Source: Clostridia bacterium
GTDB lineage: Bacteria; Bacillota; Clostridia; Christensenellales; Aristaeellaceae
Assembly: GCA_017481825.1 (NCBI GenBank)
Contig: JAFUOR010000020.1
Location: 753-64,752, forward strand
Reading direction: 5' to 3'
DNA length: 64,000 bases
Shown here in pieces: positions 3,563-57,392 of the stretch; position 1 is the first letter of the stretch, and each line of letters starts with the position of its first letter. The translations under genes were made by a program, and so were the position numbers. The notes below the pieces were generated by a model. It saw nothing but the letters and a program-made list of their open reading frames with translations, was not told the origin of the DNA and did no database searches.

Positions 3563-3581
3563 AATCATTTGGCGAGGAAAA

Positions 3582-15080: not shown

Positions 15081-15083
15081 GGC

Positions 15084-15980: not shown

Positions 15981-15990
15981 GTTTTGTCCT

Positions 15991-18023: not shown

Positions 18024-18027
18024 AGGA

Positions 18028-42155: not shown

Positions 42156-42213
42156 AAGCTACCTCCGCTTCAAATGATGCTTTCTGGTTTGCATTGTATC
42201 ATGTTGGTTCAGG

Positions 42214-42400
42214 TTCTGCAAGGGGCAGGCAGGGGCTTTGCCTCTGGACTCCACTCAGGGCCGCTTCATCCCTGAGAACCCCTTTTCGCGCTCTTGCTTG
42301 TGCTCCTTCGGTTGGGGTTGCGCACGCGTGGTTATTGAGGGGACGAAAATGGGTCGACGCCCCCTCCTGCAGAGGTCAGCGGAATGATGAATGGACTAAT
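42214..42400 (-). repeat. GC-rich REP-like dispersed repeat, copy C
   Basis: CTCCACTCAGGGCCGCTTCATCCCTGAGAACCCCTTTTCGCGCTCTTGCTTGTGCTCCTTCGGT is collinear with the copy B tail (16095-16168). Same orientation as B. Boundaries are approximate. Confidence 0.55.
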
Positions 42401-42437
42401 GCATTTGGGATGTTTTCATGATTTTTTTATTTTTCTC

Positions 42438-42482
42438 TTGACAAAATTCAGGTACCTGTATAAAATAATAGTCAGGTACCTG
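42438..42482 (+). promoter_or_regulatory. marR-ABC exporter promoter with twin palindromic operators
   Basis: TTGACA (42438-42443) - 17 nt - TAAAAT (42461-42466). The perfect palindrome CAGGTACCTG occurs twice (42449-42458 and 42473-42482), 24 bp centre to centre, bracketing the -10. Confidence 0.55.
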
Positions 42483-42507
42483 AGCAACATGTCATAAGGA
42501 GCAGCGT

Positions 42508-42933
42508 ATGAACATTGATCAGCAGCTGATGAAACATCTGAAGCAGACCCTCGCATCGGTTCGCAGGCATCCTCACGGCGATCCTGAGCATCATGGGCGA
42601 CACCGGGGGGCGGGGCATATCCTCGACCTGCTTTCCATCGAAAATGGCGTCAGCCAGCAGCAGATTGCCGGTGCGCTGTGCATCCGGCCCCAGTCCGTCT
42701 CCGAGGCCATCGCCACGCTGGAGGCGCGGGGTTTCATCCGCAAGGAAAGCAGCGCGGCTGACCGGCGCATCACGCTGATCTACCTGACGGAGGAGGGCCA
42801 GCGCCACGCCGCGATCCTCGCCCGGGAGCGCGAGGCCCATGCACAGCGGTTCTTCTCCGTCCTGAGAGATGATGAAAAGGCGACGCTCCTGACCCTACTG
42901 ACCAAACTGAACACCACAAAGGAGTGTGATTGA
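42508..42933 (+). CDS. MarR family transcriptional regulator
   Basis: 141 aa, winged-HTH MarR pattern (GVSQQQIAGALCIRPQSVSEAIATLEARGFIRKE..DRR). AAGGAG RBS. Confidence 0.9.
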   Translation: MNIDQQLMKHLKQTLASVRRHPHGDPEHHGRHRGAGHILDLLSIENGVSQQQIAGALCIRPQSVSEAIATLEARGFIRKESSAADRRITLIYLTEEGQRHAAILAREREAHAQRFFSVLRDDEKATLLTLLTKLNTTKECD

Positions 42934-42934
42934 T

Positions 42935-44848
42935 ATGATGAGAGGACCTGGAGGCCCGCCTCAGCCCTATGAGCACAAGCGCGTACCGCTGCCCACGGGC
43001 ATCAAGGATGTGCCGCGCTATCTGACGGAGCTGCTGGGCGGCTTCTTCTCCCGGTTTGCCTATATCGTCAAGCTGGTTTGGCAAACCGGACACTGGATTC
43101 TGTTTCTTCTTTCCTTCATCGCGCTGTTCAAGGGCGTCACGCCCGTTATCGGCGCGCTGATTTCCCAGGGCATCCTCAACGAGCTGCAAAAGGTCATCCA
43201 GCTGGGCGCGCTGCCGGAAGGCGAGTTCTGGCATTCGGCAGTGTTCCGTCTGCTGGTCTTCCTGTTTGTGTACCGCATTCTCAATCAGGTAGTGACCGAT
43301 CTGAGCCGCGCACTGAACCGCATCGCCGGGGAAAAGGTGGTCAAGCAGGTCAAGACGCAGATCATGGAGAAATCCAAGGAACTGGACGTGGCCTCCTTCG
43401 ATGACCCGGCGTTTTACGAGCGGATGGAGAATGCCAGCCGGGAGGCCGGTATGCGCCCGCTGCAGATCCTTACGGAAACCTTCGGCATCGTCAGCACGGT
43501 GATCGAGTTTGTCAGCTATCTGGCCATTCTCTTTGCCGCGCCGGGGCTGTGGTGGGCAACGCTGGTCATCATCGCGGTATCGATCCCCTCCGCAGTCATC
43601 AACTTCATCTACCGCCGCAAAAACTTCCAGTACATGCGCCGCCGCTCCAAGGAGAGGCGCCAGATGGACTACTATTCCAACCTGCTGGTCAACAAGGACA
43701 TGATCAAGGAAGTCCGCATGTACGACCTGGCAGATACCTTCATCGGACGTTATGCGGAGGTCTTCAAGGTCTACTATCGCGGTCTTCGCCGTCTGATCTT
43801 CTCAGAAAGCGCATGGCATATGGCCATCGGCGTTGTTGCAGGCATCACAAACCTGGTGTTCTATGTGCTCATCGCCAGGCAGGTGTTCACCGGGCAGATC
43901 ATGATCGGCGATTACACACTTTACACCAGCGCCATCGCCTCGGTGGCCAACTGCATCAACGCCCTCATCAGCACCTCAGGCACGATCTACGAGGGCACGT
44001 TGTTCATCGACAACCTGATTGCCTTCATGAACGAGCCCACCACCGTCACGCCGCGCATCGCCCAGCCGCGAACCGTGGCGCGCAGCACCGGCCACACCAT
44101 TGAGTTTTCCCATGTGAGCTTCCGCTATCCCGGCACCCGCCGCGATGTGCTGCACGATGTGAGCTTCGCCATCCAACCCGGCGAGACCCTTGCCCTTGTG
44201 GGCCTCAATGGCGCCGGTAAAACGACGCTGATCAAGCTCCTCACCCGCCTCTACGATCCCACGGAGGGGCGCATCCTGCTGGATGGTCACGACCTGCGGG
44301 ACTACGACCTGGCTGATCTGTACGCCACCTTCGGCATCATCTTCCAGGACTTTGGCCGCTATGCCGTGAGCGTGGAGGAAAACATCCGCTACGGCGATAT
44401 CCACAAGCAGGCCGACATGGACGAGGTGCGGTCCGCCGCCCGACAAAGCGCCGCCGGGGAATACATCGACGCGCTGCCCCACGGCTATGACACGCCCCTG
44501 ATGCGCATCTTTGAGCCGAATGGCATGGAGCTCTCCATCGGGCAATGGCAGAAGCTGGCCATCGCCCGCGCCTTCTACGCTGATTCGGAGATCCTCATCC
44601 TTGACGAGCCGACCGCCTCTCTCGACCCCATCGCCGAACAGGAGATCTTCAACCAGTTTGACGCCCTTCGCCACAACAAAACGACCATCTTCGTTTCTCA
44701 CCGCCTCTCCAGCGCCACCATCGCCGATCAGATCATCGTGCTGGAAAACGGCTGTCTGATCGAAAAGGGCTCCCATCAGGCTCTGATGGCGCAGCATGGA
44801 AAATACCACGAGTTGTTCTCCACGCAGGCCAAACGGTATATCTCATAA
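42935..44848 (+). CDS. ABC transporter ATP-binding/permease fusion (type IV exporter, MsbA/LmrA-like)
   Basis: 6-TM domain plus NBD (Walker A GLNGAGKTT, signature LSIGQWQK, Walker B ILILDEPT). ATG at 42935, 10 nt after AAGGAG. The track start is a GTG at 42926. Confidence 0.9.
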   Translation: MMRGPGGPPQPYEHKRVPLPTGIKDVPRYLTELLGGFFSRFAYIVKLVWQTGHWILFLLSFIALFKGVTPVIGALISQGILNELQKVIQLGALPEGEFWHSAVFRLLVFLFVYRILNQVVTDLSRALNRIAGEKVVKQVKTQIMEKSKELDVASFDDPAFYERMENASREAGMRPLQILTETFGIVSTVIEFVSYLAILFAAPGLWWATLVIIAVSIPSAVINFIYRRKNFQYMRRRSKERRQMDYYSNLLVNKDMIKEVRMYDLADTFIGRYAEVFKVYYRGLRRLIFSESAWHMAIGVVAGITNLVFYVLIARQVFTGQIMIGDYTLYTSAIASVANCINALISTSGTIYEGTLFIDNLIAFMNEPTTVTPRIAQPRTVARSTGHTIEFSHVSFRYPGTRRDVLHDVSFAIQPGETLALVGLNGAGKTTLIKLLTRLYDPTEGRILLDGHDLRDYDLADLYATFGIIFQDFGRYAVSVEENIRYGDIHKQADMDEVRSAARQSAAGEYIDALPHGYDTPLMRIFEPNGMELSIGQWQKLAIARAFYADSEILILDEPTASLDPIAEQEIFNQFDALRHNKTTIFVSHRLSSATIADQIIVLENGCLIEKGSHQALMAQHGKYHELFSTQAKRYIS

Positions 44849-44855
44849 AAAGAAT

Positions 44856-44890
44856 GCGGAACCGCCCAAGATGACGGTCCCGCGTTTTTC
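44856..44890. terminator. bidirectional terminator between convergent ABC genes
   Basis: GCGGAACC-loop-GGTCCCGC (one mismatch) with GTTTTTC on the plus side and TTCTTTTT on the minus side. Confidence 0.5.
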
Positions 44891-44927
44891 ATTCTTATCA
44901 TGCGCGTCGCTGACGGGGCTTTGGGGC

Positions 44928-45614
44928 TTACGCCTCTACCACCCTCAGCATTCCGCCGCGCAGGCTGTACATCACGTCTGCCTCCTTCGCCAGATCGCCG
45001 TCGTGGGTGACCATGATGATGGTCTTGCCGGAGCCCGGCTGGCCGTCCTTTTCTCTGACCAGCTGCTTGAGGATCGCCACCACGCGTCGACTGTTCTCTT
45101 CATCGAGATTGCCGGTGGGTTCATCGGCAAGAATCACCTTCGCGCCCGCTGCCAGCGCACGGGCGATGGCCACGCGCTGCTGCTCGCCACCAGATAGATT
45201 GCGGGGCAGGCGTTTGTGCAGCGATTCGGCGATATCCACCTTTGCCAGCAGCTCGGCAGCCGCCTTTCGTGCCTCGGCAGCCTTCACACCATTGAGCAGC
45301 TGCGGATACATCACGTTCTCGATCACCGTTGCATAGGTCAGCAGGTTGAACCGCTGGAAGATGGTCGTCACGCAGCTGTGGCGGTATCTGGCGGTCTTGA
45401 TTTCCTTCAAGGGTGTGCCGTCGTAGAGGATACGCCCCTCCTGCGGGTGATCCAGCGCCGCCATCAGCGACAGCATCGTCGACTTGCCGCAGCCGCTGGG
45501 GCCCTGAATGGTGTAGAACTTGCCCTGCTCAAAGGTGCATGTCACGCCATGCAGCACATCCACGCGGCTGCTGCGTCCGGTATAGGAATAGCTCACATTT
45601 TCAAGCGTCAGCAT
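44928..45614 (-). CDS. ABC transporter ATP-binding protein (MacB/LolD/FtsE type)
   Basis: 228 aa. Walker A GPSGCGKST, signature LSGGEQQR, Walker B ILADEPTGNLD. Confidence 0.9.
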   Translation of the reverse strand: MLTLENVSYSYTGRSSRVDVLHGVTCTFEQGKFYTIQGPSGCGKSTMLSLMAALDHPQEGRILYDGTPLKEIKTARYRHSCVTTIFQRFNLLTYATVIENVMYPQLLNGVKAAEARKAAAELLAKVDIAESLHKRLPRNLSGGEQQRVAIARALAAGAKVILADEPTGNLDEENSRRVVAILKQLVREKDGQPGSGKTIIMVTHDGDLAKEADVMYSLRGGMLRVVEA

Positions 45615-45632
45615 CGTTTTGCCTCCTTCACA

Positions 45633-46730
45633 TTATTCATGCAGCTGATGGATCAGCGGTCGTGTCATATAGATGCAGATGGGGATCAGCGCGCCCAGTG
45701 CATACATTCCGTTCAGGCCAGCCGTCATGCTCACGCGCCAGCCCAGCAGCCATGCTGCCGGGAATACGATCAGGCACGGGATGGCGGTTTCTGCAAGGCC
45801 CTGCAGAATCAACCCGAGCCTTCCCACGCCCATGCTCTGCATGATCGCAATCTCCTGCTTGCGGGCACGCACGGTCAGAAACGAGATCAGCACGCCTGAA
45901 AGGAATACCAGCAGCGTGAAGAGCGGCTCAACAATTTGGAGCAGCAGCTCGTTGCGGCGGCTGGCCTGCTCGACGTTGCGGTAGGCCTCGTCATGCATCA
46001 CCAGCTGCACGAAGGCCGGGTACACGCCATCCTCATTCGGGGTGAAATAGGGCGCGGCGGATTCAAGCCATGCGTCCAGTTGGCTGTTATCCTTGAGGAT
46101 AAAGGACAGCCGCTCACCGTTCAGGGCAATCGTCCAATCGTAGAGGGCATAGAAGGGGCACCAGAGCGCGTCCCTCTCGCTGCATTCGCCGATGACGCGC
46201 CATGTGCGGCTTTCATCGTTCAGGGTGAGGGTCAGCGTGCGGGCGCCGTCCTCCGACACCCTCACATAGGGCAGGAGGGCCGCGCCGACCATGCAGACGG
46301 GCTCCTGCGTGTCGAAGACCTCTTCGTCCCAGCCCCCGTCATAGCTGATGGCAGGCGCGTCGCCAAGGCTGCGCAGCTCCCGGAGGCAGGGCAGCGTCAC
46401 ACCGGTGATGACGGTATCCGCGCCGTCAGGCAGCTTCACCGCAGTCTCGCTGCGGATGGAGAATTGCGACACATACTGCTTCCAACCGCCCTGCACAAAG
46501 GAATACACGAGGCCGTTCATGATGCTCACGTCCTCCGTGCGGCCATCCGGCGTAGCAAGCACACATTTGATGGGTGAAGCCATCAGCAGCTGACGCGTCG
46601 CCTCAGCGCGGGTGGCGATAGAGCCCTGCACCTGCTCTGTCAGCAGGATCAGCACGAAGATGAGCAGCACCGATCGCACCCACACCCCCGCGCAGCGCAG
46701 CCAGCGCGCCCATGTCAATCGAACAAGCAT
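45633..46730 (-). CDS. FtsX/MacB-type ABC permease, small-ectodomain paralogue
   Basis: TM1, an ectodomain of about 230 aa, then 3 C-terminal TMs (FtsX-like: RKQEIAIMQSMGVGR). The ATG at 46730 follows GAAGGAAGG. The track start at 46796 is rejected. Confidence 0.75.
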   Translation of the reverse strand: MLVRLTWARWLRCAGVWVRSVLLIFVLILLTEQVQGSIATRAEATRQLLMASPIKCVLATPDGRTEDVSIMNGLVYSFVQGGWKQYVSQFSIRSETAVKLPDGADTVITGVTLPCLRELRSLGDAPAISYDGGWDEEVFDTQEPVCMVGAALLPYVRVSEDGARTLTLTLNDESRTWRVIGECSERDALWCPFYALYDWTIALNGERLSFILKDNSQLDAWLESAAPYFTPNEDGVYPAFVQLVMHDEAYRNVEQASRRNELLLQIVEPLFTLLVFLSGVLISFLTVRARKQEIAIMQSMGVGRLGLILQGLAETAIPCLIVFPAAWLLGWRVSMTAGLNGMYALGALIPICIYMTRPLIHQLHE

Positions 46731-48454
46731 TGATTCACCTTCCTTCTGGTAAAAACCACGCTCTGCACCGCCGTCACCAGCAGGAACACGCAGCAAGTCA
46801 TCCCCATGGCAATCAGGATGGGCAGCAGCTCAACGCGCATCCCCTCCTCGGAGAACGCACCCACACGGATAGCGCTGAAATCCATGCTGGCGGTAATGTA
46901 GACCTCATTCAGCGCGATCGATACGTACTCCCGCGCACCGGACACCACCAGCAGCGCAAGGCCGCAGCCCGCCATCACCAGCAGAACGCAGCACAGGAGC
47001 ATCCGCAGCGTCACGCGCATGCGTCCAGTCCCCAGCATGGCGAGGATGGCGTTTTCCTTCCGCCACGAGCGGGCGTAAAGGGCGAGGATAATCACCAGCA
47101 TCAGCACACCCACCGCCACGCTGACCGCAAGGAGCGTGATGCTGTCGGCAATCATGAGGGCAAGGATTTCCTTCACCTCATCGTAGTTGGTCTCCTCGAT
47201 GGTATAGATGCCGTCAGGATAGCCCGCGTCTTTCACCGCCTGCAGGAAAGCGTCGCCCTGGCCGTTGTGGAGGATGATGTTCTGGGTATGGATGGGATAT
47301 CGACAGAAGGTTCGGTTCATCTCCAGCGATACTGCGTCATAGGGCGCAAACACGGTATCGGGCGTAAATTCATCGATGGTGCTCGTGTACAGAGGTGCGG
47401 TGTAAATGCCAACGATCTCCAACACAACTTTTTCATTCGCGGCATTGTCCACATCTGTGAAGGTATACTGCTCCTCAAGCATATCTTCCTGCGCCCACAG
47501 GTTCAGGCGGATGGAGGGCACATACGCCGTCATGGAGATGGTATCACCAATGGACAACCTATTGGCTTTTGCCAGCTCCTGACTGATCAGGCAGACCTTC
47601 GCGCCGGAAGCCTGCTCCTCCTCCGTAAAGGCCCGACCTTCAACAATACTCGCCGTACCGTTATTGAACCAGGCCAGGCGCTCCAGATCATTGATGCAAT
47701 TCAGGCGCAGCATGCGGTTGTTCATACTGCCGATGCGTACCGCCGCGTGCCGCCACGGGGTATCATCCGGAGTCGAAGCATACTTCATCCACGGGTCCAT
47801 ATCCCACCAGTCGTACAGGCGAAGCAGCGGCGGCTCGTCCTTCATCTGCTTATAGACCGGGTCATAGTAGCCCTTGATCAGACTGGCGTCCACATCAAGA
47901 TTCACAAAATAGTCCTCATAGCGGCCACAGATGAGATAGCTTTGTCCTGGCGTGAAGTCAATGTCCCTCTCCAAATAGCCGGTGACTCTGATTTTCTCCG
48001 GAATATCATAGGGCAAGGACAGATGTACCTCATCCACACGCACGAGCGCATATCCCCGCTGATCAAGCAGTTTTTCGCAGGTAACGGTCATGACGGTATA
48101 CGCATGATCCACGTCGCGGGACCAGCTGTAATATGCCCCTTCAACCTGACCAGAGTACACGGGCGTGACACTCACGTCACGGGCAGCATAGGGCTTTGTC
48201 AGCGCTGGAACCTTCACGCTTTCATGCGCATTCAGCGCATCGATCAGCTTCGCATCATTGTCCAGATAATAGCTGACTCCGTCAAAGGAGCCGGTATGCC
48301 GCACTGCCAGCGTCACGGTACTGTCCTCCACCTCCTGCGTCTGCTGCAAGGTGAAAACATGCACCGTCGCACCCAGCCCGGCAATCGCTGCCGCGCAGGC
48401 GACCAGCAATATGACCAGCAGGCTTCGGCCCATATCACGGTATAATCGCTTCAT
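46715..48454 (-). CDS. FtsX/MacB-type ABC permease with an ectodomain of about 430 aa (paralogue 2)
   Basis: 579 aa. TM1 (LLVILLVACAAAIAGLG), a MacB-periplasmic-core-like block (GRAFTEEEQASGAKVCLISQELAKANRLSIGDTISM) and a C-terminal FtsX bundle (RKENAILAMLGTGR...). Confidence 0.8.
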   Translation of the reverse strand: MKRLYRDMGRSLLVILLVACAAAIAGLGATVHVFTLQQTQEVEDSTVTLAVRHTGSFDGVSYYLDNDAKLIDALNAHESVKVPALTKPYAARDVSVTPVYSGQVEGAYYSWSRDVDHAYTVMTVTCEKLLDQRGYALVRVDEVHLSLPYDIPEKIRVTGYLERDIDFTPGQSYLICGRYEDYFVNLDVDASLIKGYYDPVYKQMKDEPPLLRLYDWWDMDPWMKYASTPDDTPWRHAAVRIGSMNNRMLRLNCINDLERLAWFNNGTASIVEGRAFTEEEQASGAKVCLISQELAKANRLSIGDTISMTAYVPSIRLNLWAQEDMLEEQYTFTDVDNAANEKVVLEIVGIYTAPLYTSTIDEFTPDTVFAPYDAVSLEMNRTFCRYPIHTQNIILHNGQGDAFLQAVKDAGYPDGIYTIEETNYDEVKEILALMIADSITLLAVSVAVGVLMLVIILALYARSWRKENAILAMLGTGRMRVTLRMLLCCVLLVMAGCGLALLVVSGAREYVSIALNEVYITASMDFSAIRVGAFSEEGMRVELLPILIAMGMTCCVFLLVTAVQSVVFTRRKVNQCLFD

Positions 48455-48472
48455 CCTCTATCCCCTTCCGTA

Positions 48473-50260
48473 TCAGTCAAACAGGCCCTTGCGGGGCGTC
48501 CGCAACGCAGCAATGGCCGCCTGCACTGTTGTCACCAGCAGGAATGCGCCGCAGGTCAAGCCCATGGCGAGCAGCACCGGCAGCAGTTCCACGCGCATGC
48601 CCTTCTCGGAGAACGCACTCACACGGATGGCGCTGAAATCCATGCTGGAGGTGATGTAGACCTCGTTCAGCGCGCTTGATATGTACTCCCGCGCTCCGGC
48701 AATGGCCGCCAGCGCCAACGTGCAGCCTGCGATCACCAGCACCGTGCAGCACAGGAGCATCCGCAGCGTTACACGCAGGCGGTTCGTCCCCAGCATGACG
48801 AGGATGGCGTTCTCCTTCCTCCACGAACGAGCGTAGAGCGCGAGAATAATCACCAACATCAGCAAACCCACCACCGCGCTGACCGCAAAAAGCGTGATGC
48901 TGTCGGCTGCCATGAGGGCGAGAACCTGCCGCACCTCGTCATAGTTGGTCTCCTCGATGGTGTAGAGGCCGTCGGGGTAGCCCGCATCGCGTACAGCTTG
49001 CAGGAAGGCCTCGCCCTGGCCGTTGTGGAGAATGAGGTTCTGGGTGTGGATGGGCAGGCGGCGTATCAGGAAATTATACTCAAGCTGCACCGCGTTGTAG
49101 GGGGCAAACACCGTGTTGGGTGTGAACTCGTCGATGGTGTTCGTGTACAGAGGCGCGGAATAGATGCCGACGATCTCCAGCGCTACGTCCACACCGCGGA
49201 AATCGTAGTAGTCATCGTTCGGTAAATCAACCACATTGGTGAAGGCATAATACTCGCTCAAAGTATCTTCATATCGCCCACTCCAAATGTCCAGACTGAT
49301 TCCAGGCTGGTTGGCGTTCATGGTGATGGTATCGCCCACGGTAAGGCCGTTGGCATCCGCCAGTTCCTTGCTGATGAGGCAGACCTGTGCGCCGCTGTCC
49401 TGCTCCTCCTGGGTGAAGCTGCGGCCTTCGACGATACTGGCCGTACCGTTCTGGAACCAGCGCAGACGGCTCAGGTCATTGATGCAGTTCAATCGGAGCA
49501 TGCGGTTGTTCATGTCGCCCATGCGGACGGCTTCCGCCAGCCATTGGGTATCGTCTGGCGTTGTGATGTACTTCATGTAGTCGTTCAAATCCCACCAGTC
49601 CATCAGGCGCAGGCGAGGCAGATCGGATTTGTCCGGCTTATAAACCGGGTCGTAATACCCCATGATGAGGCTGGCGGACATATCCAAATCCATAAAATAG
49701 TCTTCATATCGTCCACACAGCAGATATGTTTCCCCTGGAATCAGCGGTTCCTGAGCCCGGGAACCCGATGAGATTCTTTCCACTCGGATGACATCGGGTA
49801 TATCATAGGGCAGCTCAAGGTGAATTTCATCTACTTGAACAAGGTAGTACCATGCGTTCGTATCTTTCTCAAGTCCCAAATCCTCCAGGCAGGTGACGGT
49901 CATGACCGTATGGGCATGGGCACGGTCACGGCTCCAGTTATACAAATCCACATTGCCGGAGTACACTGGCGTCACGTCAGCGTCAATGCCGGCATAAGCC
50001 CGTATCAGCGCCGGTATCTTTACACTTTCATGGCCATTGAGGAATTCGAGCATCTGCACGTCCTTCCGGACATCATAGGCAACCGTTGCACGAGAACCCA
50101 CATGCCGCACCGCCATGGTGATAACGCTGTCCTCCACCGCATGTGTCTGCTGCAAAGTGAAGAGATGCACCGTTGCGCCCAGCCCAGCGATGGCCGCCGC
50201 GCAGGCGATCAGCAGGATAAGGAGCAGGCTGCGGCCTGCATCGCGGTATAATCGCTTCAT
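48473..50260 (-). CDS. FtsX/MacB-type ABC permease with an ectodomain of about 430 aa (paralogue 1)
   Basis: 595 aa, same architecture as 46715..48454 and clearly homologous along its whole length. The first 60 aa match at 47 of 60 positions by hand count. Confidence 0.8.
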   Translation of the reverse strand: MKRLYRDAGRSLLLILLIACAAAIAGLGATVHLFTLQQTHAVEDSVITMAVRHVGSRATVAYDVRKDVQMLEFLNGHESVKIPALIRAYAGIDADVTPVYSGNVDLYNWSRDRAHAHTVMTVTCLEDLGLEKDTNAWYYLVQVDEIHLELPYDIPDVIRVERISSGSRAQEPLIPGETYLLCGRYEDYFMDLDMSASLIMGYYDPVYKPDKSDLPRLRLMDWWDLNDYMKYITTPDDTQWLAEAVRMGDMNNRMLRLNCINDLSRLRWFQNGTASIVEGRSFTQEEQDSGAQVCLISKELADANGLTVGDTITMNANQPGISLDIWSGRYEDTLSEYYAFTNVVDLPNDDYYDFRGVDVALEIVGIYSAPLYTNTIDEFTPNTVFAPYNAVQLEYNFLIRRLPIHTQNLILHNGQGEAFLQAVRDAGYPDGLYTIEETNYDEVRQVLALMAADSITLFAVSAVVGLLMLVIILALYARSWRKENAILVMLGTNRLRVTLRMLLCCTVLVIAGCTLALAAIAGAREYISSALNEVYITSSMDFSAIRVSAFSEKGMRVELLPVLLAMGLTCGAFLLVTTVQAAIAALRTPRKGLFD

Positions 50261-51774
50261 TGACGTTCCCCCCTATGTCTGCGCCCCGTCACCCGCGCCG
50301 CCATCAGGCAAATGCCTGCCATCATGACTGCCGCCGCACCATGCTGGCGAGCCTCCTGCGCACGGGCCACAGCGGCCTCCTTCGCCGCCACATCGCCGAT
50401 CTGGCGTACCTCGTAGAGTTCCTCCGGCAGTTCACTGTCCTTGAGGTGCTGGATAAAAGCCTCGCCCTGTCCGTCCGCCAGAATAGGATTCATCAGGCAC
50501 AGCGGAAGCTGCTGGGAAATACTGCCGGACGCCTCTGCCACACCGCAGGGCGCGAAGATCGCGTTGAAGGAGAAATCTTCCGCCTTGTAGTCCGGCACGG
50601 GTGCAGAATACACCCCGATGATTTGCAGCGTCACCGTCTGCATCGCGTCCATCTCCACCTGGGCATAGTTGGTGGTGAGGTGGTAATAGTCGTTCACGCC
50701 GTTCATCGCCGCCGTGTATTCACCCTGGATCAGCTGCATGGTGATGCTGTCGCCCACGGTAAGGCCGTTGGCCGCAGCCAGCTCCTGGCTGACGATACAC
50801 ACCGCCGCCCCCTGCGCCATTTCCTCCGCCGTGAAGGTGCGGCCCTGCGTCACCCGCGCCGCACCCGTGGCGAAATGCTCTACGCAGCGCAGATCATTGA
50901 CACAGTAGAGTGCAAGGCGGGCATTGCTGTACCTGGCAATTTCCACCGCCCGCGCAAGCCACGCCGTATCGTCAGGGCTGGAAATGTAGTGCACCCCCTC
51001 CAGGTACCACGGCCATTTCCGCAGGAGCAGGAGAGGCTTGGTATTCACCTGCTGACTGGCCGCCACTTGCGGATAGTAGTGATTGCTGCCGCGGTCATTC
51101 CAGTAGCGGAACACCGCATTGTCCCGATATTGCCCGCAGAGGACATAGCTTTCGCCCACGACAAGGGGCTTCTGCAGGCATTGAACGCTGTTGGGAATAA
51201 GGCAGTCCGGCAGCGTCTCCCCTGACACGAGGAACGCCTGCGGATCGGACGCTTCCGCGCCGCCGCAGCAGACGGTGATCTGTGCCGGTACGGTATACAT
51301 GTCCGCGATGGCGTTGACCGCTTCGACCCGCACCTGCGCCTCCCAGCAGCTATCGGGGCTGTCCGTATACTGCCGGATAGAGGTGCAGGTCACCGTCAAC
51401 ACAGCGTAGCTCCAGTCCGCATCCAGTCCCGCGCTGTACTGATGCAGGCTGCGCGCGCCGCTGGAAACAGGATGCACGCCCTCCGCCACACCCACGAAGG
51501 CCTCGCCCCCCACAGGAACGCGCACCGCCTCGCTGGCATTGACGAGCCGGGTGATCTTCTCCTGTTGCGGCACGACGAACTCCGTCGCCTCCGGATGACT
51601 CTCCAACACCGCACTGATGAAGCTGTACGGCTGCCTCATCGCCAGCGTGAAGGCGGTCTGCGAAAGAGCCTCTGCCTCCTGCGCAGCCTGACGCCAGCGC
51701 CATGCACTCACCCCCGCCATCACGACGGCAGCCAGTGCCAGCAGCAGAAAACAGGCACGGATGGTTCGCTTCAT
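50257..51774 (-). CDS. membrane-anchored MacB-ectodomain paralogue lacking the FtsX bundle
   Basis: 505 aa. N-terminal TM, a homologous ectodomain (GRTFTAEEMAQGAAVCIVSQELAAANGLTVGDSITM) and only one C-terminal TM (AAAVMMAGICLMAA). ATG at 51774, 7 nt after GAGGTGA. Its stop overlaps the next start (ATGA). Confidence 0.7.
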   Translation of the reverse strand: MKRTIRACFLLLALAAVVMAGVSAWRWRQAAQEAEALSQTAFTLAMRQPYSFISAVLESHPEATEFVVPQQEKITRLVNASEAVRVPVGGEAFVGVAEGVHPVSSGARSLHQYSAGLDADWSYAVLTVTCTSIRQYTDSPDSCWEAQVRVEAVNAIADMYTVPAQITVCCGGAEASDPQAFLVSGETLPDCLIPNSVQCLQKPLVVGESYVLCGQYRDNAVFRYWNDRGSNHYYPQVAASQQVNTKPLLLLRKWPWYLEGVHYISSPDDTAWLARAVEIARYSNARLALYCVNDLRCVEHFATGAARVTQGRTFTAEEMAQGAAVCIVSQELAAANGLTVGDSITMQLIQGEYTAAMNGVNDYYHLTTNYAQVEMDAMQTVTLQIIGVYSAPVPDYKAEDFSFNAIFAPCGVAEASGSISQQLPLCLMNPILADGQGEAFIQHLKDSELPEELYEVRQIGDVAAKEAAVARAQEARQHGAAAVMMAGICLMAARVTGRRHRGERQ

Positions 51775-51912
51775 CAATCATTCACCTCAGTCAAACAGAT
51801 TCTTCCGAAGGCTTCCCTCCCATAGGGCGCAACGCCTCTATATGGTGAATATTGCGTGAAAAACGGAAATATGGACAAAAAACATTGTTCTGAATAAGAA
51901 CATTCCCAAGCC

Positions 51913-51942
51913 TTTACAAGGGCGTGAAAGGGGTGCTATAAT
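51913..51942 (+). promoter_or_regulatory. putative sigma-A promoter of the second sigma/anti-sigma module
   Basis: TTTACA - 18 nt - TATAAT with a TG extended -10 (TGcTATAAT), about 40 nt before 51983. Confidence 0.45.
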
Positions 51943-51982
51943 CCGCGTAAGCTGCCCTATTCTGCGTAAATGAGGATGCAAG

Positions 51983-52552
51983 ATGAGCAAAAGCGTGCTG
52001 GAGAGAATCTATCACGAACGCCGCAATGACCTGATCCGTTATTGTGAGGCGTTGCTTTTGCATGACCCGAAATATCGCGCGCAGGCAGAGGAGATCGTAC
52101 AGGATGCATTCATGAGTGCCGTTGCCCAGTGGCAGCAGCTGCAAAACCACCCCAACCTCATCGGCTGGCTGATGACCACCTGCCGCAACAAGTGCCAGTC
52201 CATGGTGCGACGCGACAAGAACCGCCGGCGCATCACCGGCATGCAGGTGGAATATAACGATGAGGACGACCTGACCTCCTCGCAGCATCCAGGGGCGGAC
52301 CCTGCCATCGCCCGGCAGCAGGATGCTCTCCTGCGCTATCTGGAGGCCACCGAGGCGCGCGAAAAGCTGGACGCGCTGCATGCCCAGCTCTCCCCGCTGG
52401 AGCGCAAGGTATATGATGAATATTTCCTCCAACACGCCACGCTGAAGGACACCGCGCAGAAGCTGGGCGTGAAGCCGGACGCTGTGAACGACGCCGTGCG
52501 CCGCATCCGCCGGAAGGCACTGAAAATGGACTGGGAAGGGAGGCTGTCATGA
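51983..52552 (+). CDS. sigma-70 family (ECF-like) RNA polymerase sigma factor
   Basis: 189 aa. Region 2-like (AEEIVQDAFMSAV, NLIGWLMTTCRNKCQSM) and region 4 HTH (LKDTAQKLGVKPDAVNDAVRRIRRKA). Paralogous in layout to 11605..12138. Confidence 0.8.
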   Translation: MSKSVLERIYHERRNDLIRYCEALLLHDPKYRAQAEEIVQDAFMSAVAQWQQLQNHPNLIGWLMTTCRNKCQSMVRRDKNRRRITGMQVEYNDEDDLTSSQHPGADPAIARQQDALLRYLEATEAREKLDALHAQLSPLERKVYDEYFLQHATLKDTAQKLGVKPDAVNDAVRRIRRKALKMDWEGRLS

Positions 52553-53367
52553 TGAACACGAAAGCAAGCCATACCAAACAAATCCTCGACGCCATCCATC
52601 ACGGCGGGCTACCCCCCGCCCAAACCGAGGCAAGGCTGCTCGGCATCATTCAGGAAGAATCGGAACGCACCGACCGCGAGGCAGATATGGTCCTGGTGAA
52701 CGCCTGCCTCGATCTGCTGGAGCAGCTGCACAGCGCATCCGCAGCAGGGCGCCCTGCGCGGCAGCCTAAGCTGCGCCGCCTTGCACGCCTGCGTCCCGCG
52801 GCTGCTCTGGCCGCAGCACTGGTGCTGGTCGTCATTGGGGGGCTCATGCTCCGCACGCCGCAGGAGCAGCCTCAGGCTGTACTCGGCCCATCGCTGGACA
52901 TGATCGCCACAGCCATGGCGGAAGGCAATCCCACCGAGACGATCATCGTCGAGGACATTTCACAGCTGGACAGCCTGCTGGGCTTGCAGCTGCAATTGCC
53001 GGCGCAGTTGTGCGGCGAATGGACAGCCACACAGGGGCAGATCCGCTATCTGCCTGAGTACATCCGCATTGAGTTCGCCTATGCCCATGCCGCGTCGCCC
53101 GAAAAGGATATCGTCTGCGTTATCTCCCTCTTCACGGAGACGGACAACCTCTACATATCCTCCGAGCAGACCGGCGAAGGCGGCACCGTGCACGCCAACG
53201 GACGCAGCATCTACATCAGCGCCGTCAGCGGTGATCTGCCAGCGAACGACCGCATCGCCGCCTACTGGCAAGAGCAGGGCGTGAGCATGCGTCTGTCCGG
53301 GCGCATCACCGCATCGGAAGCCGTCAGGCTGATGCTGGCGCTGGCGGAATCGCAGGACGCAAACTGA
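52549..53367 (+). CDS. anti-sigma-factor-like membrane protein (DUF4367-like C-terminal domain)
   Basis: 272 aa. Its start overlaps the sigma stop (ATGA). One central TM (AAALAAALVLVVIGGLML) and an extracytoplasmic C-terminal domain. Confidence 0.6.
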   Translation: MMNTKASHTKQILDAIHHGGLPPAQTEARLLGIIQEESERTDREADMVLVNACLDLLEQLHSASAAGRPARQPKLRRLARLRPAAALAAALVLVVIGGLMLRTPQEQPQAVLGPSLDMIATAMAEGNPTETIIVEDISQLDSLLGLQLQLPAQLCGEWTATQGQIRYLPEYIRIEFAYAHAASPEKDIVCVISLFTETDNLYISSEQTGEGGTVHANGRSIYISAVSGDLPANDRIAAYWQEQGVSMRLSGRITASEAVRLMLALAESQDAN

Positions 53368-53378
53368 ACAGATAAAGC

Positions 53379-53430
53379 AAACCGCCTGCACACTCCGGTA
53401 CCGCGCCGGGGTGTGCAGGCGGTTTATTGC
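53379..53430 (+). terminator. rho-independent terminator after the sigma/anti-sigma pair
   Basis: AAACCGCCTGCACAC - loop - GTGTGCAGGCGGTTT (15-bp stem) followed by ATTG. Confidence 0.65.
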
Positions 53431-53584
53431 GTATATGCTTCAACCAATTCACAAAAATGACATATGTGTAAAAACGTTCAATCGCATGAAAAATCTGTCA
53501 TGAAAACGGGCGATATATCGTTTTCTCAACGAAAGGTCAAATACGCACTCTTCTCCAAGAGTGACCACCATAGGAGGAATAACG

Positions 53585-55099
53585 ATGAAACGCTTACTGA
53601 TCCTGCTGACCATCCTGCTGGGGCTGTGCTGCGTCGCCCATGCTGAGCAGCAGGCGGAGGAGGCTGCGCTGCAGGCAATGCTGGATGCCTACTCGGGGTA
53701 CACCATCCTGTCCTGCGACCAGTGGGGAAACACCGCCGCCGCAGCCCTGGGAAAGGGCGAGAAGCGCATCCTGTGCGTCGCGGAGAAGAACAAGGATGCA
53801 TGGGAATTGGTCATTTACAACCCTGCGGCCCTGCCCGATGGCGTTACGCCCAGCATCCACATGGATACGGACACAGCGCTGTTTTGGTCATACGAGGATG
53901 ACTACCACCATTACAGCTACACCAGCGTGAAGGAAAAGGACGTCTGGCGAGCGCCCAGCTGCATACAGTCCGATCTGCTGAGGGAAGACGCGATGTTACA
54001 TGACGAGCGTGAACACCATTGGGAAGACGGCCTGCTGTCCTACACGTTGTACAGGCGGGATCAGAACGAGAATCTTCATAGCATCCATCACTATGGTCCT
54101 TTTCCGGCAGCATGGCTGACGGTTTACAGCAGCCTGGCATCCTATGATGACAGCGTCTACCCCACAGCCGCCAAAGTCACCGATACCTCCTGGCTGAATC
54201 AGGATGCGCTGCTTCTCAGCGCGGCAGAAATCGCGCCGGAATACACCTTTGTGGACGGTGCAGCCACGGATGATGGTCTTGAATTGCTGATGCAGGGAGA
54301 AGACGGCTCGCTGCGGATGATCACCTGGGCCGTCGTGAATGGCACGCCGATCACCAACATCAGCGCCGCGCTGCCGGAGGGCACACGCTATGGCTCCAAG
54401 CATGTATGGCTTCCCACCCAGACGCTGGCGTGGCTGGGCCTTTATGCCGATGGTGTGTGGCACGTGAAGGACGTCTGCCCGGATACAGCGTGGGGCTCGC
54501 CGGTGCACATGGGCCGGAACTGGATTTCGGACTTCACAACATTCGGGGACAAGCGCTATGTGGGCGACCATCCCTGGAGCAGCCTGAGCATGGACTGGAG
54601 CACCCTTCCCACCACCCTGGACGAGGCGCTTGAATCCCTCGACGCCAGCCGCTGGGCTGTGGTGAACAACCCCGATCCTGCCGACCGCCTGCACCTGCGG
54701 GAACGGGCGAATAAGAATTCCGCCTCCACCGGCAAGTATTACAACGGCACCCCCGCAGAAGTGCTGCAAAAGGGCGACGTCTGGACGAGGGTGCGGGTTG
54801 CCGGCTGGACGGGCTGGATGATGACGAAGTACCTGGCCTTCGGCGAGGATGGCTGGGCGGTGGAGAACGCCTTCCCTCAGCTGAATTTCGTGGAGGGAGC
54901 ATCCACCTTCCCCGTCTGGAAGCCGGAAAGCATCCATGCAGACAAGAAAATCTCCTCCACCGGAGACTGGACGGTGGAAACAGGCGAGGACTTCTGCATC
55001 ATCGGCACTCTGGACGAGGAGTGGTATCACATCTGGTTCACCGACCTGGATGTGGGCGGCTATATGCGCCAAAGCGATTTCTGGCCGGGCAATGGCTGA
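53585..55099 (+). CDS. secreted protein with C-terminal SH3b-like domains
   Basis: Signal peptide MKRLLILLTILLGLCCVAHA after AGGAGGAA. The C-terminus (LHLRERANKNSASTGKYYNGTPAEVLQKGDVWTRVRVAGWTGWMMTKYL) resembles a bacterial SH3 domain. I do not recognise the N-terminal 330 aa. Confidence 0.7.
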   Translation: MKRLLILLTILLGLCCVAHAEQQAEEAALQAMLDAYSGYTILSCDQWGNTAAAALGKGEKRILCVAEKNKDAWELVIYNPAALPDGVTPSIHMDTDTALFWSYEDDYHHYSYTSVKEKDVWRAPSCIQSDLLREDAMLHDEREHHWEDGLLSYTLYRRDQNENLHSIHHYGPFPAAWLTVYSSLASYDDSVYPTAAKVTDTSWLNQDALLLSAAEIAPEYTFVDGAATDDGLELLMQGEDGSLRMITWAVVNGTPITNISAALPEGTRYGSKHVWLPTQTLAWLGLYADGVWHVKDVCPDTAWGSPVHMGRNWISDFTTFGDKRYVGDHPWSSLSMDWSTLPTTLDEALESLDASRWAVVNNPDPADRLHLRERANKNSASTGKYYNGTPAEVLQKGDVWTRVRVAGWTGWMMTKYLAFGEDGWAVENAFPQLNFVEGASTFPVWKPESIHADKKISSTGDWTVETGEDFCIIGTLDEEWYHIWFTDLDVGGYMRQSDFWPGNG

Positions 55100-55717
55100 T
55101 GGTCTGCTGTTAGCAAATGATTCAGTGATGGCACTGCGATTCCACCTTGCGCTTTGTGAAACCAAACTCTTTGTCCATGGATTCTTTCGGTAAGGCTAAT
55201 CATCTCTTGGGTGCCACGGGAACGAATCAAATCCCAGGCAGAGACTCCGGCTTTGGTTTTTGCATATACAGCCTGGCTCGACGCGCCTTGAATACAGGCA
55301 GACAGGAAGGCTTTGGTTTCCTCATTGCAGTTTGATGGGATCATTATGGCAAAAACCATTGAATGCAAACCGTTCATTCCCCGCCGACCGGCAACACCCA
55401 AATCAGAGCCTGCTTCCAACAGCGCACACCCCAAGCAAGTAGCACCGGGGCTGCCGATTCGAGACGCCAACAAGTTTATCTCATTACCGTTAGTGACAAT
55501 CGAGGATGTATGCCGATCGCCTTTTTGATATGCAGTGCGACGCCAAATTTTCGTTACTGATCAAAGGTGCTTTGATGCTGTCACCATATTTGCGCAAACA
55601 TTCGTCCAATTGTTCAAATGCAACCTGGAGCCTCGACATTGCATCCAAAACTGACTGATCCGTACCACATCGCACCTCGCGCATAACATCCCTATCCTGC
55701 ATTGTATTATCTTCCAC
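55060..55717 (-). pseudogene. possible frameshifted ankyrin-repeat-like gene in a low-GC patch
   Basis: Two consecutive minus-strand ORFs in different frames (55490..55717 and 55060..55473). The second continues open upstream to about 55556. It contains ankyrin-like strings (ALLEAGSDLGVAGRRGMNGLH, GVSAWDLIRSRGTQEMISL). It overlaps the convergent upstream gene by 40 nt. Confidence 0.3.
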
Positions 55718-55825
55718 AATATGCGCCTCATCTCTTTTCTATGCTTGTGCGACAAATTCAAACCTGGAAGTTCGGGATCCAGCGTCAGCCCATGCGCGCC
55801 ACCGTTTGCCTTCCTTGATTCCCCA

Positions 55826-57298
55826 TCAATTGAAGCTCGGCAGTTCATCCAGCGTGATGAAATAATCGCTCTGATAAATCTCCTTCAATGATGCGGGCGT
55901 GTTGCTCTTGCCATCGGTCAGATAGGTGGTATGCCACACCATGAACATCAGCCACGGTGCGTTGGCACTCTCCATTTGCGCCTCCGTCGGAATGCTGCCG
56001 CACTCATGGAACACGATTGGCATGCCCTCTGCGGCAATGGATTCAACCTCCTGATACAGTCGGCCATTCGCACCGGGGGAATAGCTGTCTGCACCGATGA
56101 GATCCACATAATCATCGCCGGGATACCACGCTGCCATGTTGCCGCCGTTGCCGGAATAGCCCAGCAGCCAGATCAGATTGTCCAGCCCCCAGTAATCGGT
56201 GTAGCGGCTGTACATCAGCTGCCACAGCTTCACAAAGGACTCACTGCCGCCCTTGGACCACCAGAACCAGCCGCCATCCAGCTCGTGGAAGGGCCGCCAC
56301 AGCACTGGCACACCGGCATCCTCCAACTGCTGCAGGTAGGGCACCGCCCGGTCCATATCCGCAAGCAGCTTGGCATATTCGGACGTTCCCGGCGTGAGAG
56401 CTGCCTCCCAGTTCAGGTTGTGCGCCTTGCTTTCATTGTAGCCGGAAGCAAAATCGCTGCCGGTATGCCAGCAGATGTGCGGAATGCCGCCCTTCTCCCA
56501 CCACTGGATGGAGCGATCCACCACGCCCTGGAAATCATTGTGCATAAAGTCCAGCCCACGGATCGCAGGCAGCTCACCAGTGTGCTTTTCAACGAAGTCC
56601 ATTTCATAATCCGGAGAGCTCATCCAGGTGGATTCCATCTGACCAGTCAGGCAATAGCTGCCCCAGATCTGCTGGAGGTATGCATACACCCTTTGGGCCG
56701 CCGGGATGGCGTTTTCATTGGAAAGATCGCCGTCATAGGTATGGATGATCTTTTCTGATTCTGCCACCAGCGCAAGATGCGCCTGCATTTCAGCCGCCAC
56801 ATCCGCGTTCAGGAAATACAGCCCCGCAATACGGCCTCCATTCCAGGCACCGAGGGCAAACTGCTTCACGTCCGCAGGCGCGGAAACGCCGCCCCTGGCA
56901 GCCAGTTCACCCACGGAGATCACCATCAGCCGCTCCTTGTCCGGCTGATCAGACACGGCAGCAATGTCCTCCTGCTTGTTGTTTACACTCAGGCCCAGCA
57001 CACCCCAACCACCATGGGTCACATCGTCGCAGGCCCAGACCAGGGCCACAGCATCCTCAGGAGAAGCGCCCGTGAGCCAGGTAATGTCGGCAGGATAGTA
57101 GCCCTGATTGGTCTTACCGGAATAGAGCAGCGTCCCCTTTTCCAAAATGGCGGCCTGAACCGCAAGGCACTCCGCCTCATCCATGCTGTTGCGTACAGCC
57201 GGAGCCTCGACAGGCGTCCAGACCGCCTCCTCCGCACCCGCACAGCAGCAAGCAAGAACCAGCATCAGGGCAACCACTAAGCTCAGAATACGTTTCAT
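55826..57298 (-). CDS. secreted glycoside hydrolase family 26 (beta-mannanase-like) with an extra N-terminal domain
   Basis: GH26-like blocks (IRGLDFMHND, GGIPHICWH, VLWRPFHELDGGWFWW). Signal peptide MKRILSLVVALMLVLACCCAGA. ATG at 57298, 6 nt after AGGAGG. About 190 aa lie between the signal peptide and the catalytic domain. Confidence 0.85.
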   Translation of the reverse strand: MKRILSLVVALMLVLACCCAGAEEAVWTPVEAPAVRNSMDEAECLAVQAAILEKGTLLYSGKTNQGYYPADITWLTGASPEDAVALVWACDDVTHGGWGVLGLSVNNKQEDIAAVSDQPDKERLMVISVGELAARGGVSAPADVKQFALGAWNGGRIAGLYFLNADVAAEMQAHLALVAESEKIIHTYDGDLSNENAIPAAQRVYAYLQQIWGSYCLTGQMESTWMSSPDYEMDFVEKHTGELPAIRGLDFMHNDFQGVVDRSIQWWEKGGIPHICWHTGSDFASGYNESKAHNLNWEAALTPGTSEYAKLLADMDRAVPYLQQLEDAGVPVLWRPFHELDGGWFWWSKGGSESFVKLWQLMYSRYTDYWGLDNLIWLLGYSGNGGNMAAWYPGDDYVDLIGADSYSPGANGRLYQEVESIAAEGMPIVFHECGSIPTEAQMESANAPWLMFMVWHTTYLTDGKSNTPASLKEIYQSDYFITLDELPSFN

Positions 57299-57392
57299 TT
57301 TCATCCTCCTTTGGAAGCCGAACTTCACCGCGACGAACGAAGTCATGTGTTTGTGAACTGTGCCATGAAACAACTTCCCTCAATAATATGAT

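Follow-up and report, generated by a model that had tools for sequence, protein, structure and literature searches.

A rare type VII ABC operon with one ATPase gene, variable large-ectodomain subunits and an adjacent pair of an ECF sigma and a putative anti-sigma factor in an uncultured Clostridia bacterium

To our knowledge, the ATP-binding cassette (ABC) systems of type VII that have been characterised, whose mechanical tasks beyond the membrane differ widely, are homodimers, fused pseudo-dimers or, as the one heterodimer, LolCE. What kind of machine, then, is encoded by an operon of this class in which one ATPase gene is preceded by several different genes for membrane proteins with extracytoplasmic domains (ectodomains)? 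The question is raised by a 64-kb stretch of DNA (the whole of which is called the window below) from the metagenome-assembled genome (MAG) of an uncultured gut or rumen Clostridia bacterium, where such an operon (genes A to E, 44928-51774, minus strand) lies divergent from a pair of genes for an extracytoplasmic function (ECF) sigma factor and a putative anti-sigma factor. The five-gene locus is real; it represents a rare variant, so far uncharacterised, of a known class of machine. A probability of about one half is given here to the reading that it encodes an inducible envelope-defence module, probably a heteromeric type VII ABC system resembling LolCDE, with exchangeable ectodomain subunits.

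The initial annotation of the window, made from the sequence alone, had listed five tightly packed minus-strand genes, and these were confirmed as open reading frames (ORFs) in the order A-B-C-D-E, each with an ATG start and a purine-rich ribosome-binding site (RBS; Table 1). Genes A and B overlap by 4 nt and genes C and D by 16 nt, with gaps of 18 nt both between B and C and between D and E. In the operon interior, only weak sigmaA-like promoter matches (9/12) and two short hairpins were found, with no excess over shuffled sequence. Because the genes are tightly spaced, have no notable sigmaA promoter or terminator between them and are followed by a terminator-like hairpin after gene E, the simplest reading would be that all five form one transcript. 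An Rfam scan of positions 42000-56000 (E-values up to 1) returned no RNA element, and the NCBI labels of the window's own proteins go no further than 'ABC transporter permease' or 'hypothetical protein'.

Table 1. Features of the ABC operon, the divergent sigma/anti-sigma genes and the DNA between them (positions in the window)
Feature	Position	Strand	Description and basis
Terminator-like hairpin	44856..44883	-	Just 3' of the ATPase stop codon; intrinsic type, 11-bp stem, T-rich tail
Gene E, ABC ATPase, 228 aa	44928..45614	-	LolD/MacB/FtsE type; motifs and family models
Gene D, small FtsX-type permease, 365 aa	45633..46730	-	Pfam FtsX, Foldseek
Gene C, large-ectodomain FtsX-type permease, 579 aa	46715..48454	-	Pfam, hydropathy; 67% identity with B
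Gene B, large-ectodomain FtsX-type permease, 595 aa	48473..50260	-	Pfam, hydropathy, AlphaFold2/Foldseek
Gene A, paralogue with two transmembrane helices, 505 aa	50257..51774	-	Hydropathy, alignments
Conserved promoter-like block, candidate ECF-dependent promoter	51835..51878	-	TTGTCCATATTTCCGTTTTTCACGCAATATTCACCATATAGAGG; ABC operon side
Perfect palindrome, possible operator	51886..51902	.	TGTTCT-N5-AGAACA; between the two divergent promoters
Near-consensus sigmaA-type promoter of the sigma gene	51913..51942	+	TTTACA-18-TGcTATAAT; 11/12 matches plus TG
ECF-type sigma-70 family factor, 189 aa	51983..52552	+	Pfam, TIGR02937
Putative anti-sigma factor, 272 aa	52549..53367	+	Single-pass membrane protein; gene overlaps the sigma gene by 4 nt

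Assignment of the operon to the type VII class, as first annotated, was borne out by the permeases B, C and D having four transmembrane helices (TMs), by Pfam matches, by the structural similarity of the modelled folds of B and D found with Foldseek, and by a nucleotide-binding domain (NBD) of the LolD/MacB/FtsE clade. The ATPase E carries the motifs from which it had been called MacB/LolD-like (Walker A GPSGCGKST, signature LSGGEQQR, Walker B ILADEPT), together with the H-loop VTHD. Its top NCBIfam model is LolD, followed by L_ocin_972_ABC (lactococcin-972-type exporter), FtsE, DevA and MacB, all scoring below their equivalog cut-offs, and its best single-domain relatives in the PDB are MJ0796, 5xu1_A, LolD, YtrE, YbbA and the MacB NBD.

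The small permease D consists, by hydropathy, of TM1, an ectodomain of about 230 amino acids (aa) and three C-terminal TMs, and matches the Pfam FtsX model (PF02687) at 26.9 bits, above the cut-off of 25.5. Its AlphaFold2 (AF2) model has an overall predicted local distance difference test (pLDDT) score of 58.4, the membrane part being poorly and the ectodomain well predicted, and retrieved MacB, 5xu1, LolE and the isolated ectodomains of MacB, YknZ and LolC/E in Foldseek (E 3e-8 to 7e-4). The modelled ectodomain has a Porter/Sabre-like fold of canonical size, and because it matches those of MacB, 5xu1, LolE, YknZ and LolC/E, the model identifies D as a type VII permease of canonical size.

Permeases B and C, which are 67% identical over their full length, show TM1 plus C-terminal TMs by hydropathy, and the AF2 secondary structure (B and D were modelled) agrees with a four-TM layout in which a large ectodomain lies between TM1 and TM2. 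The ectodomains span about 425 aa in B and 410 aa in C relative to the 207 positions of the Pfam MacB_PCD model, in keeping with the earlier estimate of roughly twice the usual MacB size. MacB_PCD (PF12704; cut-off 27) was matched by A, B and C (28.4, 36.5 and 33.0 bits, respectively), and the Pfam FtsX model weakly by C (13.5 bits) and not detectably by B. For B, an AF2 model based on 18 family members (pLDDT 65.7) gave Foldseek matches to 5xu1 of S. pneumoniae (top), LolE/LolC, MacB, YbbP, YtrF and HrtB (E 8e-9 to 1e-4). Most of the extra size of B stems from a confidently modelled beta-rich domain (residues ~116-255), inserted after the first Porter-like strands and ahead of the Sabre-like region, in which the MacB_PCD match lies; this insert has only weak matches, to OB/NTR-like folds (Foldseek E ~1e-2). 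Within the B family, conservation is high in the TM helices, the final part of the ectodomain and the TM3-TM4 loop, and lowest in residues 321-360. The extracytoplasmic TM3-TM4 'shoulder' loop, at ~23 aa, is of unusual length and contains a segment, DFSAIRVgAFSE (B residues 541-552), that is near-invariant across large subunits; the shoulder loop of MacB has been described as short (PMC5985334). The conserved loop of the large subunits is a candidate functional site on the outer face of the membrane.

Gene A had been annotated as a homologous ectodomain without the FtsX bundle. The homology (31% identity to B across the ectodomain, E 1e-54) and the absence of the bundle both stand, but A is not a simple truncation. 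By hydropathy it has a single N-terminal TM, and a short C-terminal hydrophobic helix is visible in alignments only. The A-type orthologue in the related locus L014 has a C-terminal helix and tail, LLLVTAAQVMALPRRKVKACLFG, that align with the TM4 end of full-length proteins (FLLVTAVQSVVFTRRKVNQCLFD in C), and because of this correspondence the A type is best described from the alignments as a two-TM form with an internal deletion, in which TM2, TM3 and the intervening coupling helix are missing. The major coupling helix of MacB, situated between TM2 and TM3, relays NBD movements to the membrane domain (PMC5985334). Since A has no such helix, it is predicted that the ATPase cannot drive it directly. 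The annotation of D as a further recognisable paralogue of A, B and C was not upheld at the sequence level: BLASTP of D against B showed no similarity, a profile-profile comparison gave a match of just E 0.05 confined to the coupling-helix region, and homology in sequence between large and small permeases was rejected on this ground. A PDB sequence search gave nothing significant for B or D.

How widespread such proteins are was assessed at several depths. A word-indexed search of 5.8 billion protein clusters returned few close relatives, about 20 for B (43-73% identity) and 13 for D (64-79%), and without exception these came from metagenomes or MAGs. An exhaustive profile search of 1.84 billion representatives yielded, at 50% identity, only two clusters each for the B family proper and for the A type. 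Around the B family lies a wide circle of FtsX permeases 600-720 aa long, with 108 representatives below E 1e-30, 872 below 1e-10 and 2102 below 1e-3; ten of its members were looked up, one being labelled 'ABC transporter permease, partial' (from a Synergistaceae MAG) and the rest nameless. Judged by these profile matches, the large-ectodomain FtsX permeases are a broad uncharacterised superfamily, which contains the conserved trio of large subunit, small permease and ATPase described below. Profile scans of species-representative genomes with the large- and small-subunit alignments, and a scan of one JGI metagenome, found no relative, and a tblastn search of PLSDB with B, aimed at plasmid carriage, was empty. 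Taxonomic spread was sampled through exact-protein look-ups.

Comparison of related loci (designated by L numbers) showed a conserved unit consisting of a divergent ECF sigma/anti-sigma pair, one to three large-ectodomain subunits, one small permease and one ATPase. The order is anti-sigma, sigma and, divergently, large subunit, small permease and ATPase in L001, L003, L008 and L009 as well as in L005 and L006; in L004 and L007 the sigma pair is followed by two large subunits, the small permease and the ATPase, and in L014 and L015 by a large subunit, an A type, the small permease and the ATPase (L016 being a fragment with the same operon genes). L010 has an A type, a large subunit and a small permease. 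With an A type, B and C preceding the small permease and ATPase, the window holds the largest set of large subunits among the loci compared. The sigma pair adjoins the operon in five of the six distinct locus types, and because the flanking genes differ between loci, gene order indicates that the module is inherited as a unit. The cluster is not confined to one strain. The complete operon and sigma pair recur, essentially identical, in four further assemblies, with the ORFs intact in all five. Remote trios of large subunit, small permease and ATPase (~25% identity) were found beside a PadR-like regulator in L013 and downstream of a BlaI/BlaR1-like pair in L021 and L022. The early impression that the layout resembles no characterised system holds in so far as the PDB, the family libraries and the searchable literature contain no characterised match, but the five-gene layout is not a one-off invention: it enlarges upon a simpler trio that is conserved.

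Across these loci, identity to the window amounts to 82-86% for the ATPase, 66-80% for D, 45-74% for the large subunits and 43-46% for the A type. A neighbour-joining tree separated at least four large-subunit lineages and a distinct A-type clade, the latter present in three locus types, and these are combined differently per locus; D is the constant partner in every related locus that has its downstream genes on the contig. The sequence pattern suggests a constant engine (D and E) with variable ectodomains. One constant small permease and ATPase set against one to three variable large subunits would fit a heteromer or subunit swapping, as had been proposed. Set against this is the reading that B, C and D form independent homodimers (B2, C2 and D2), each with its own substrate, that share one ATPase gene, with no big/small heterodimer and A as a spare or regulatory fragment. 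All predicted MacB-type systems of B. subtilis are homodimers (PMC11466899), and B/D similarity is undetectable outside the coupling-helix region, so that a matched interface is not evident. Against independent homodimers, every related locus with downstream genes on the contig, the remote trios included, has exactly one small permease, at least one large permease and a single ATPase, a strict co-inheritance that is the pattern of obligate partners such as LolC/LolE, and sequence conservation is far higher in the small subunit than in the large ones. We regard homodimers as unlikely, though a serious possibility.

The variable subunits might alternatively be remnants, A and either B or C being decaying or unexpressed duplicates of a simple big-plus-small-plus-ATPase system. 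The minimal trio does suffice in most related loci, and A has none of the parts for ATPase coupling. Selection was estimated from orthologue pairs of other loci, within-strain dN/dS being uninformative (the four other assemblies are essentially identical). The ratios were 0.07-0.19 for the large, small, ATPase, sigma and anti-sigma pairs and 0.34 (at dS 0.77) for the A type; every component tested, A type included, is under purifying selection. Moreover, the A types form their own clade in three locus types and retain a length of ~490-505 aa at 41-46% identity, and B and C are both intact, 67% identical and furnished with good RBSs, in ORFs preserved in five assemblies. Decay is already disfavoured on these grounds and seems very improbable.

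The divergent genes, suggested at the outset as the regulator of the operon, are separated from it by 208 bp. The sigma factor has regions 2 and 4 only (Sigma70_r2 32.7, Sigma70_r4_2 31.3 and Sigma70_ECF 28.0 bits in Pfam) and scores 62.1 bits on TIGR02937 (cut-off 42.9). The putative anti-sigma factor has a cytoplasmic N-terminus, one TM (residues 83-101) and an extracytoplasmic domain of ~170 aa; no Pfam family, and no Pfam anti-sigma domain, was found in it, the only matches being weak ones to NF052375 (E 0.011) and to a DUF4367-like profile (E 0.0018, probability 15% in hhalign). A DUF4367/LolA-like nature of its ectodomain was considered and is kept as a lead and not as a claim, the hhalign signal being weak. 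Homologues of the anti-sigma factor occur in the same synteny in L004, L007 and L014. The best matches of the window's pair among the fetched loci were the positional counterparts (sigma E 1e-13 to 1e-10; anti-sigma E 9e-12 and 3e-7), with identities of 80% and 68%, respectively, in L014 and 27-31% and 23-32% in the other loci. Because positional counterparts remain the best matches despite such low identity, the pairs are most readily seen as fast-diverging orthologues. The orthologous sigma factors of L001 (9279-9857), L004 (7493-8077) and L014 (3321-3932) end in a hydrophobic tail, for example ...FPELCVLVLLGSYIK and, in L014, ...WSLLLTLLPLLHILTEGRLL; the window's sigma factor has no such tail (C-terminus ...MDWEGRLS), and a C-terminal extension of this kind is unusual on an ECF sigma factor.

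The DNA between the divergent genes is asymmetric. A sigmaA-type element precedes the sigma gene (Table 1) and was also seen by eye upstream of sigma in orthologous loci, and no sigmaA-like promoter of the ABC operon was found by scan. On the operon side lies a conserved block of ~44 nt that is almost identical in L014 and recognisable in L010, although the large subunits of these loci are just 46-74% identical to B/C; its core pattern occurs once in the 64-kb window, with zero occurrences expected by chance. In loci where the sigma factor is ~29% identical to the window's, the block takes a variant form, TGTGCGG...GGCGGCTAT versus TGTCCAT...ACGCAATAT, with the downstream TATAGAGG kept. Such variation with sigma divergence is what a sigma-specific promoter would look like. 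The conserved non-sigmaA block and the linkage in five of six locus types amid unrelated flanks strengthen the candidacy of the adjoining sigma factor, on which we infer that the ABC operon probably depends. Fitting the block by eye to a sigmaA or common ECF GAAC...CGT consensus was also attempted and gave no convincing fit. The palindrome between the promoters is conserved exactly in L014 and may be an operator for some regulator.

Alternatively, the transporter could chiefly be a sensor, as in the flux sensing of BceAB-BceS: the extracytoplasmic or TM region of the anti-sigma factor would read the transporter's activity or conformation, the ABC system controlling sigma and vice versa. Co-inheritance of anti-sigma factor and transporter across loci agrees with this, as do the anti-sigma ectodomain belonging to no known sensor family and the housekeeping promoter of the sigma/anti-sigma operon, with which regulation must be post-translational. 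Direct evidence of contact is lacking, the sequences are too few for co-evolution analysis, and regulator and large-subunit lineages do not track each other, those of the window and L014 having regulators 80%/68% identical and different large-subunit lineages; we give a chiefly sensory function little credence. A more elaborate scheme, in which an engine of D and an E dimer alternates among large-subunit lineages, recruits an A type and is at the same time the input sensor for the ECF anti-sigma factor, would make the locus a modular subunit-swapping mechanotransducer, a counterpart of Bce-type flux sensing that is wired to an ECF factor and has combinatorial specificity; this is speculative and rather improbable.

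The working of the inducible heteromeric module that we favour may be pictured as follows. The ECF sigma factor would be transcribed constitutively and held at the membrane by the single-pass anti-sigma factor, and the divergent five-gene operon would be read from a non-housekeeping promoter, probably recognised by the adjoining sigma factor. Two copies of E and the small permease D would constitute the engine, D most likely pairing in LolCE style with one large permease, B or C. The TM2-TM3 coupling helices would relay ATP binding and hydrolysis to asymmetric ectodomains, which would do work outside the membrane, most probably the removal or expulsion of a harmful membrane- or wall-associated compound (a peptide, a bacteriocin or a lipid-like agent). 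Specificity would lie with B, C and the other large-subunit lineages, any of which could stand in for another, and A would be an accessory ectodomain subunit that joins the complex and is not directly driven. ECF pairs, PadR and BlaI/BlaR1-like regulators are typical of inducible responses to envelope-acting or toxic compounds, and by analogy the occurrence of all three regulator types beside these systems suggests a defensive role.

Several points weigh against this reading. A substrate, immunity, hydrolase, adaptor or bacteriocin gene was not consistently adjacent across the compared loci, and the defensive role therefore rests on analogy and on the regulator types. The promoter-like block matches no ECF consensus known to us (no GAAC...CGT pattern); the sigma gene appears, from its promoter, not to be autoregulated, which is unusual for ECF sigma factors; and adjacency is not universal, the operon of L010 having a gene other than sigma directly upstream. 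The AF2 models are of moderate quality only (pLDDT 65.7 for B and 58.4 for D), and the family is tiny, all metagenomic and without an experimental anchor.

The same machine might instead act, without detoxifying, as a mechanotransducer like FtsEX or LolCDE: an enzyme outside the cell would be switched on, or a surface protein or lipoprotein would be released or extracted, with the large ectodomains serving as docking platforms. Precedents exist within type VII in FtsEX-hydrolase and LolCDE (PMC5985334; PMC11466899), the OB/NTR-like beta domain (weak Foldseek matches, E ~1e-2) could bind a protein, and one remote relative lies in a yabP-yabQ-divIC cluster. This last, in L011 and L012 (8001-10061), is a lone 686-aa large-subunit relative that immediately follows yabP-yabQ-divIC-like sporulation/division genes and has neither an ATPase nor a small permease beside it. 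Across the compared loci the module has no conserved neighbour of the hydrolase, lipoprotein, adaptor or secreted-partner kind, and a nearby SH3_3-like protein (53561-55099) is specific to the window; stress-type regulators (ECF, PadR, BlaI/BlaR1-like) suit inducible defence better than housekeeping morphogenesis. Such a non-detoxifying role seems distinctly unlikely.

Set beside known systems, the locus is closest to LolCDE in subunit logic and to MacB/YknYZ/Spr0693-0695 in fold, as far as analogy goes. A review of the MacB family describes type VII permeases as homodimers or heterodimers and gives LolCE as the heterodimeric example (PMC5985334). With LolCDE the locus has in common the type VII fold, two different four-TM permeases with a single ATPase gene, and asymmetric ectodomains; LolE/LolC are among the top structural matches of B and D, and the LolD model is the top NCBIfam match of E. 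It differs from LolCDE in the score of E on TIGR02211 (LolD; 178.1 bits relative to an equivalog cut-off of 307.75), in its Clostridia host, which would lack a LolA/LolB logic (no search aimed at either was made), in a large ectodomain of about twice the size with an inserted beta domain, and in having a variable number of large subunits, a coupling-less A type and an attached ECF sigma pair. The MacB types of Firmicutes (YknYZ with YknX, Spr0693-0695/5xu1, YtrEF, YvrON and HrtAB) have the same fold and a separate ATPase, 5xu1 being the top Foldseek match of B and the YknZ ectodomain a match of D. They are homodimers of one permease, several of which need a membrane-fusion adaptor, and all eight predicted type VII systems of B. 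subtilis are homodimeric MacB-type or Bce-type (PMC11466899). The operon described here has instead two unrelated-looking permease types, much larger ectodomains, a dedicated adjacent sigma pair and no detected HlyD-like gene; no HlyD-type adaptor family was found in the five operon genes, the flanking genes or the precomputed Pfam lists of related loci. The yknWXYZ operon, a member of the sigmaW regulon, confers protection from the SDP toxin and would be a precedent for ECF-controlled defence by a MacB-type system.

BceAB-BceRS likewise couples a type VII ABC system genetically to a dedicated transmembrane signalling pair, and its large variable ectodomain is thought to set specificity (PMC11466899), so that a functional analogy in sensing and defence is possible. 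BceB is, however, a single 10-TM polypeptide with one ectodomain, working with a histidine kinase and response regulator, whereas the present locus has separate four-TM subunits and an ECF sigma/anti-sigma pair, and Foldseek matches to BceAB are weak (E ~1e-2). FtsEX is similar in its FtsX fold, its separate FtsE-like ATPase and its mechanotransmission to the outside instead of transport across the membrane; E reaches just 169.2 bits on FtsE (TIGR02673) versus 264.85, and D 12.1 bits on FtsX_Gpos versus 225. Compared with FtsEX, the ectodomains are far larger, there are multiple permease types and division-gene context is absent. By its defining sequence features, the locus is thus not classed as LolCDE, FtsEX, BceAB-type or tripartite MacAB-type. 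A linkage of ECF factors to ABC transporters in Firmicutes has already been noted bioinformatically, for the Firmicutes-only group ECF258, 'associated to ABC transporters' and with a membrane anti-sigma factor (PMC7826278). The anti-sigma factor of ECF258 carries DUF4179, and the main text of that paper makes no mention of FtsX or MacB (PMC7826278); no DUF4179 match was found in the window's anti-sigma factor or four orthologues, even at E-values up to 10. No description of an ECF-linked multi-permease FtsX/MacB system, and no characterised multi-permease match of any other kind, was found in the searchable literature.

Other ECF-associated genes occur in the window and the related loci. A second ECF sigma factor in the window (177 aa, 11605-12138, plus strand) is followed by a 291-aa DUF4367 protein (12183-13058, plus strand), a probable anti-sigma factor; it is not beside ABC genes, and its similarity to the ABC-linked sigma factor (E 2e-11) is about that of the positional orthologues. 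Further ECF sigma genes of related genomes stand next to very large proteins of ~695-760 aa, one with faint solute-binding-protein matches, and two BPD_transp_1 permeases (L001 13639-17832, L003 6260-9671, L008 13639-17832, L004 2046-8077 and L007 2492-8077). The ABC-linked sigma pair itself stands at the head of such a BPD_transp_1-type gene string in L004 and L007, where the string has beside it a 368-aa MacB_PCD protein and a 408-412-aa protein without a Pfam match. Coupling of ABC modules to ECF factors appears to recur in this lineage.

On the terminator side, the operon converges with a MarR-family regulator gene (42508-42933, plus strand) that overlaps the start of a fused ABC exporter gene (transmembrane domain and NBD in one protein; 42926-44848, plus strand), a separate, ordinary-looking efflux module. 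The SH3_3-like protein on the other side (plus strand, 512 aa, 194 bp 3' of the anti-sigma gene) begins with a signal-like sequence and reaches 24 bits on SH3_3, short of the cut-off of 27; it is probably unrelated to the module because it is not beside it in other locus types. Beyond it, a glycoside hydrolase family 26 (GH26) gene is intact in the window (55826-57373), present as two pieces in L017 (358 and 129 aa, 2963-4435) and as one gene in L018 (490 aa, 2537-4009); L017 and L018 are assemblies of the same strain, and the split in L017 is probably a frameshift or assembly error. A possible second ABC module at 14415-18134, suggested by ORFs of similar length (654, 345 and 221 aa), was rejected: two of them encode a TPP enzyme and a xylose-isomerase-like protein, and the 221-aa ORF matched no family. 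In PADLOC, no anti-phage defence match was obtained for the permeases, the sigma factor or the anti-sigma factor, and generic similarity only for the ATPase.

Practical value is limited for now, the organism being uncultured and the family rare, and the finding, of moderate interest to specialists in ABC transporters and ECF factors, has no bearing yet on a major open question. With a dedicated ECF pair and a compact conserved candidate promoter, the regulatory link lends itself readily to testing in a heterologous host, and the locus may give a handle on the broad family of 600-720-aa FtsX permeases, which has no named or studied member. If the features proposed here hold, monoderm bacteria would possess a two-permease type VII system in which the ectodomains are strongly asymmetric and the set of large subunits varies, and a naturally coupling-less ectodomain protein would take its place among the subunits of a type VII system.

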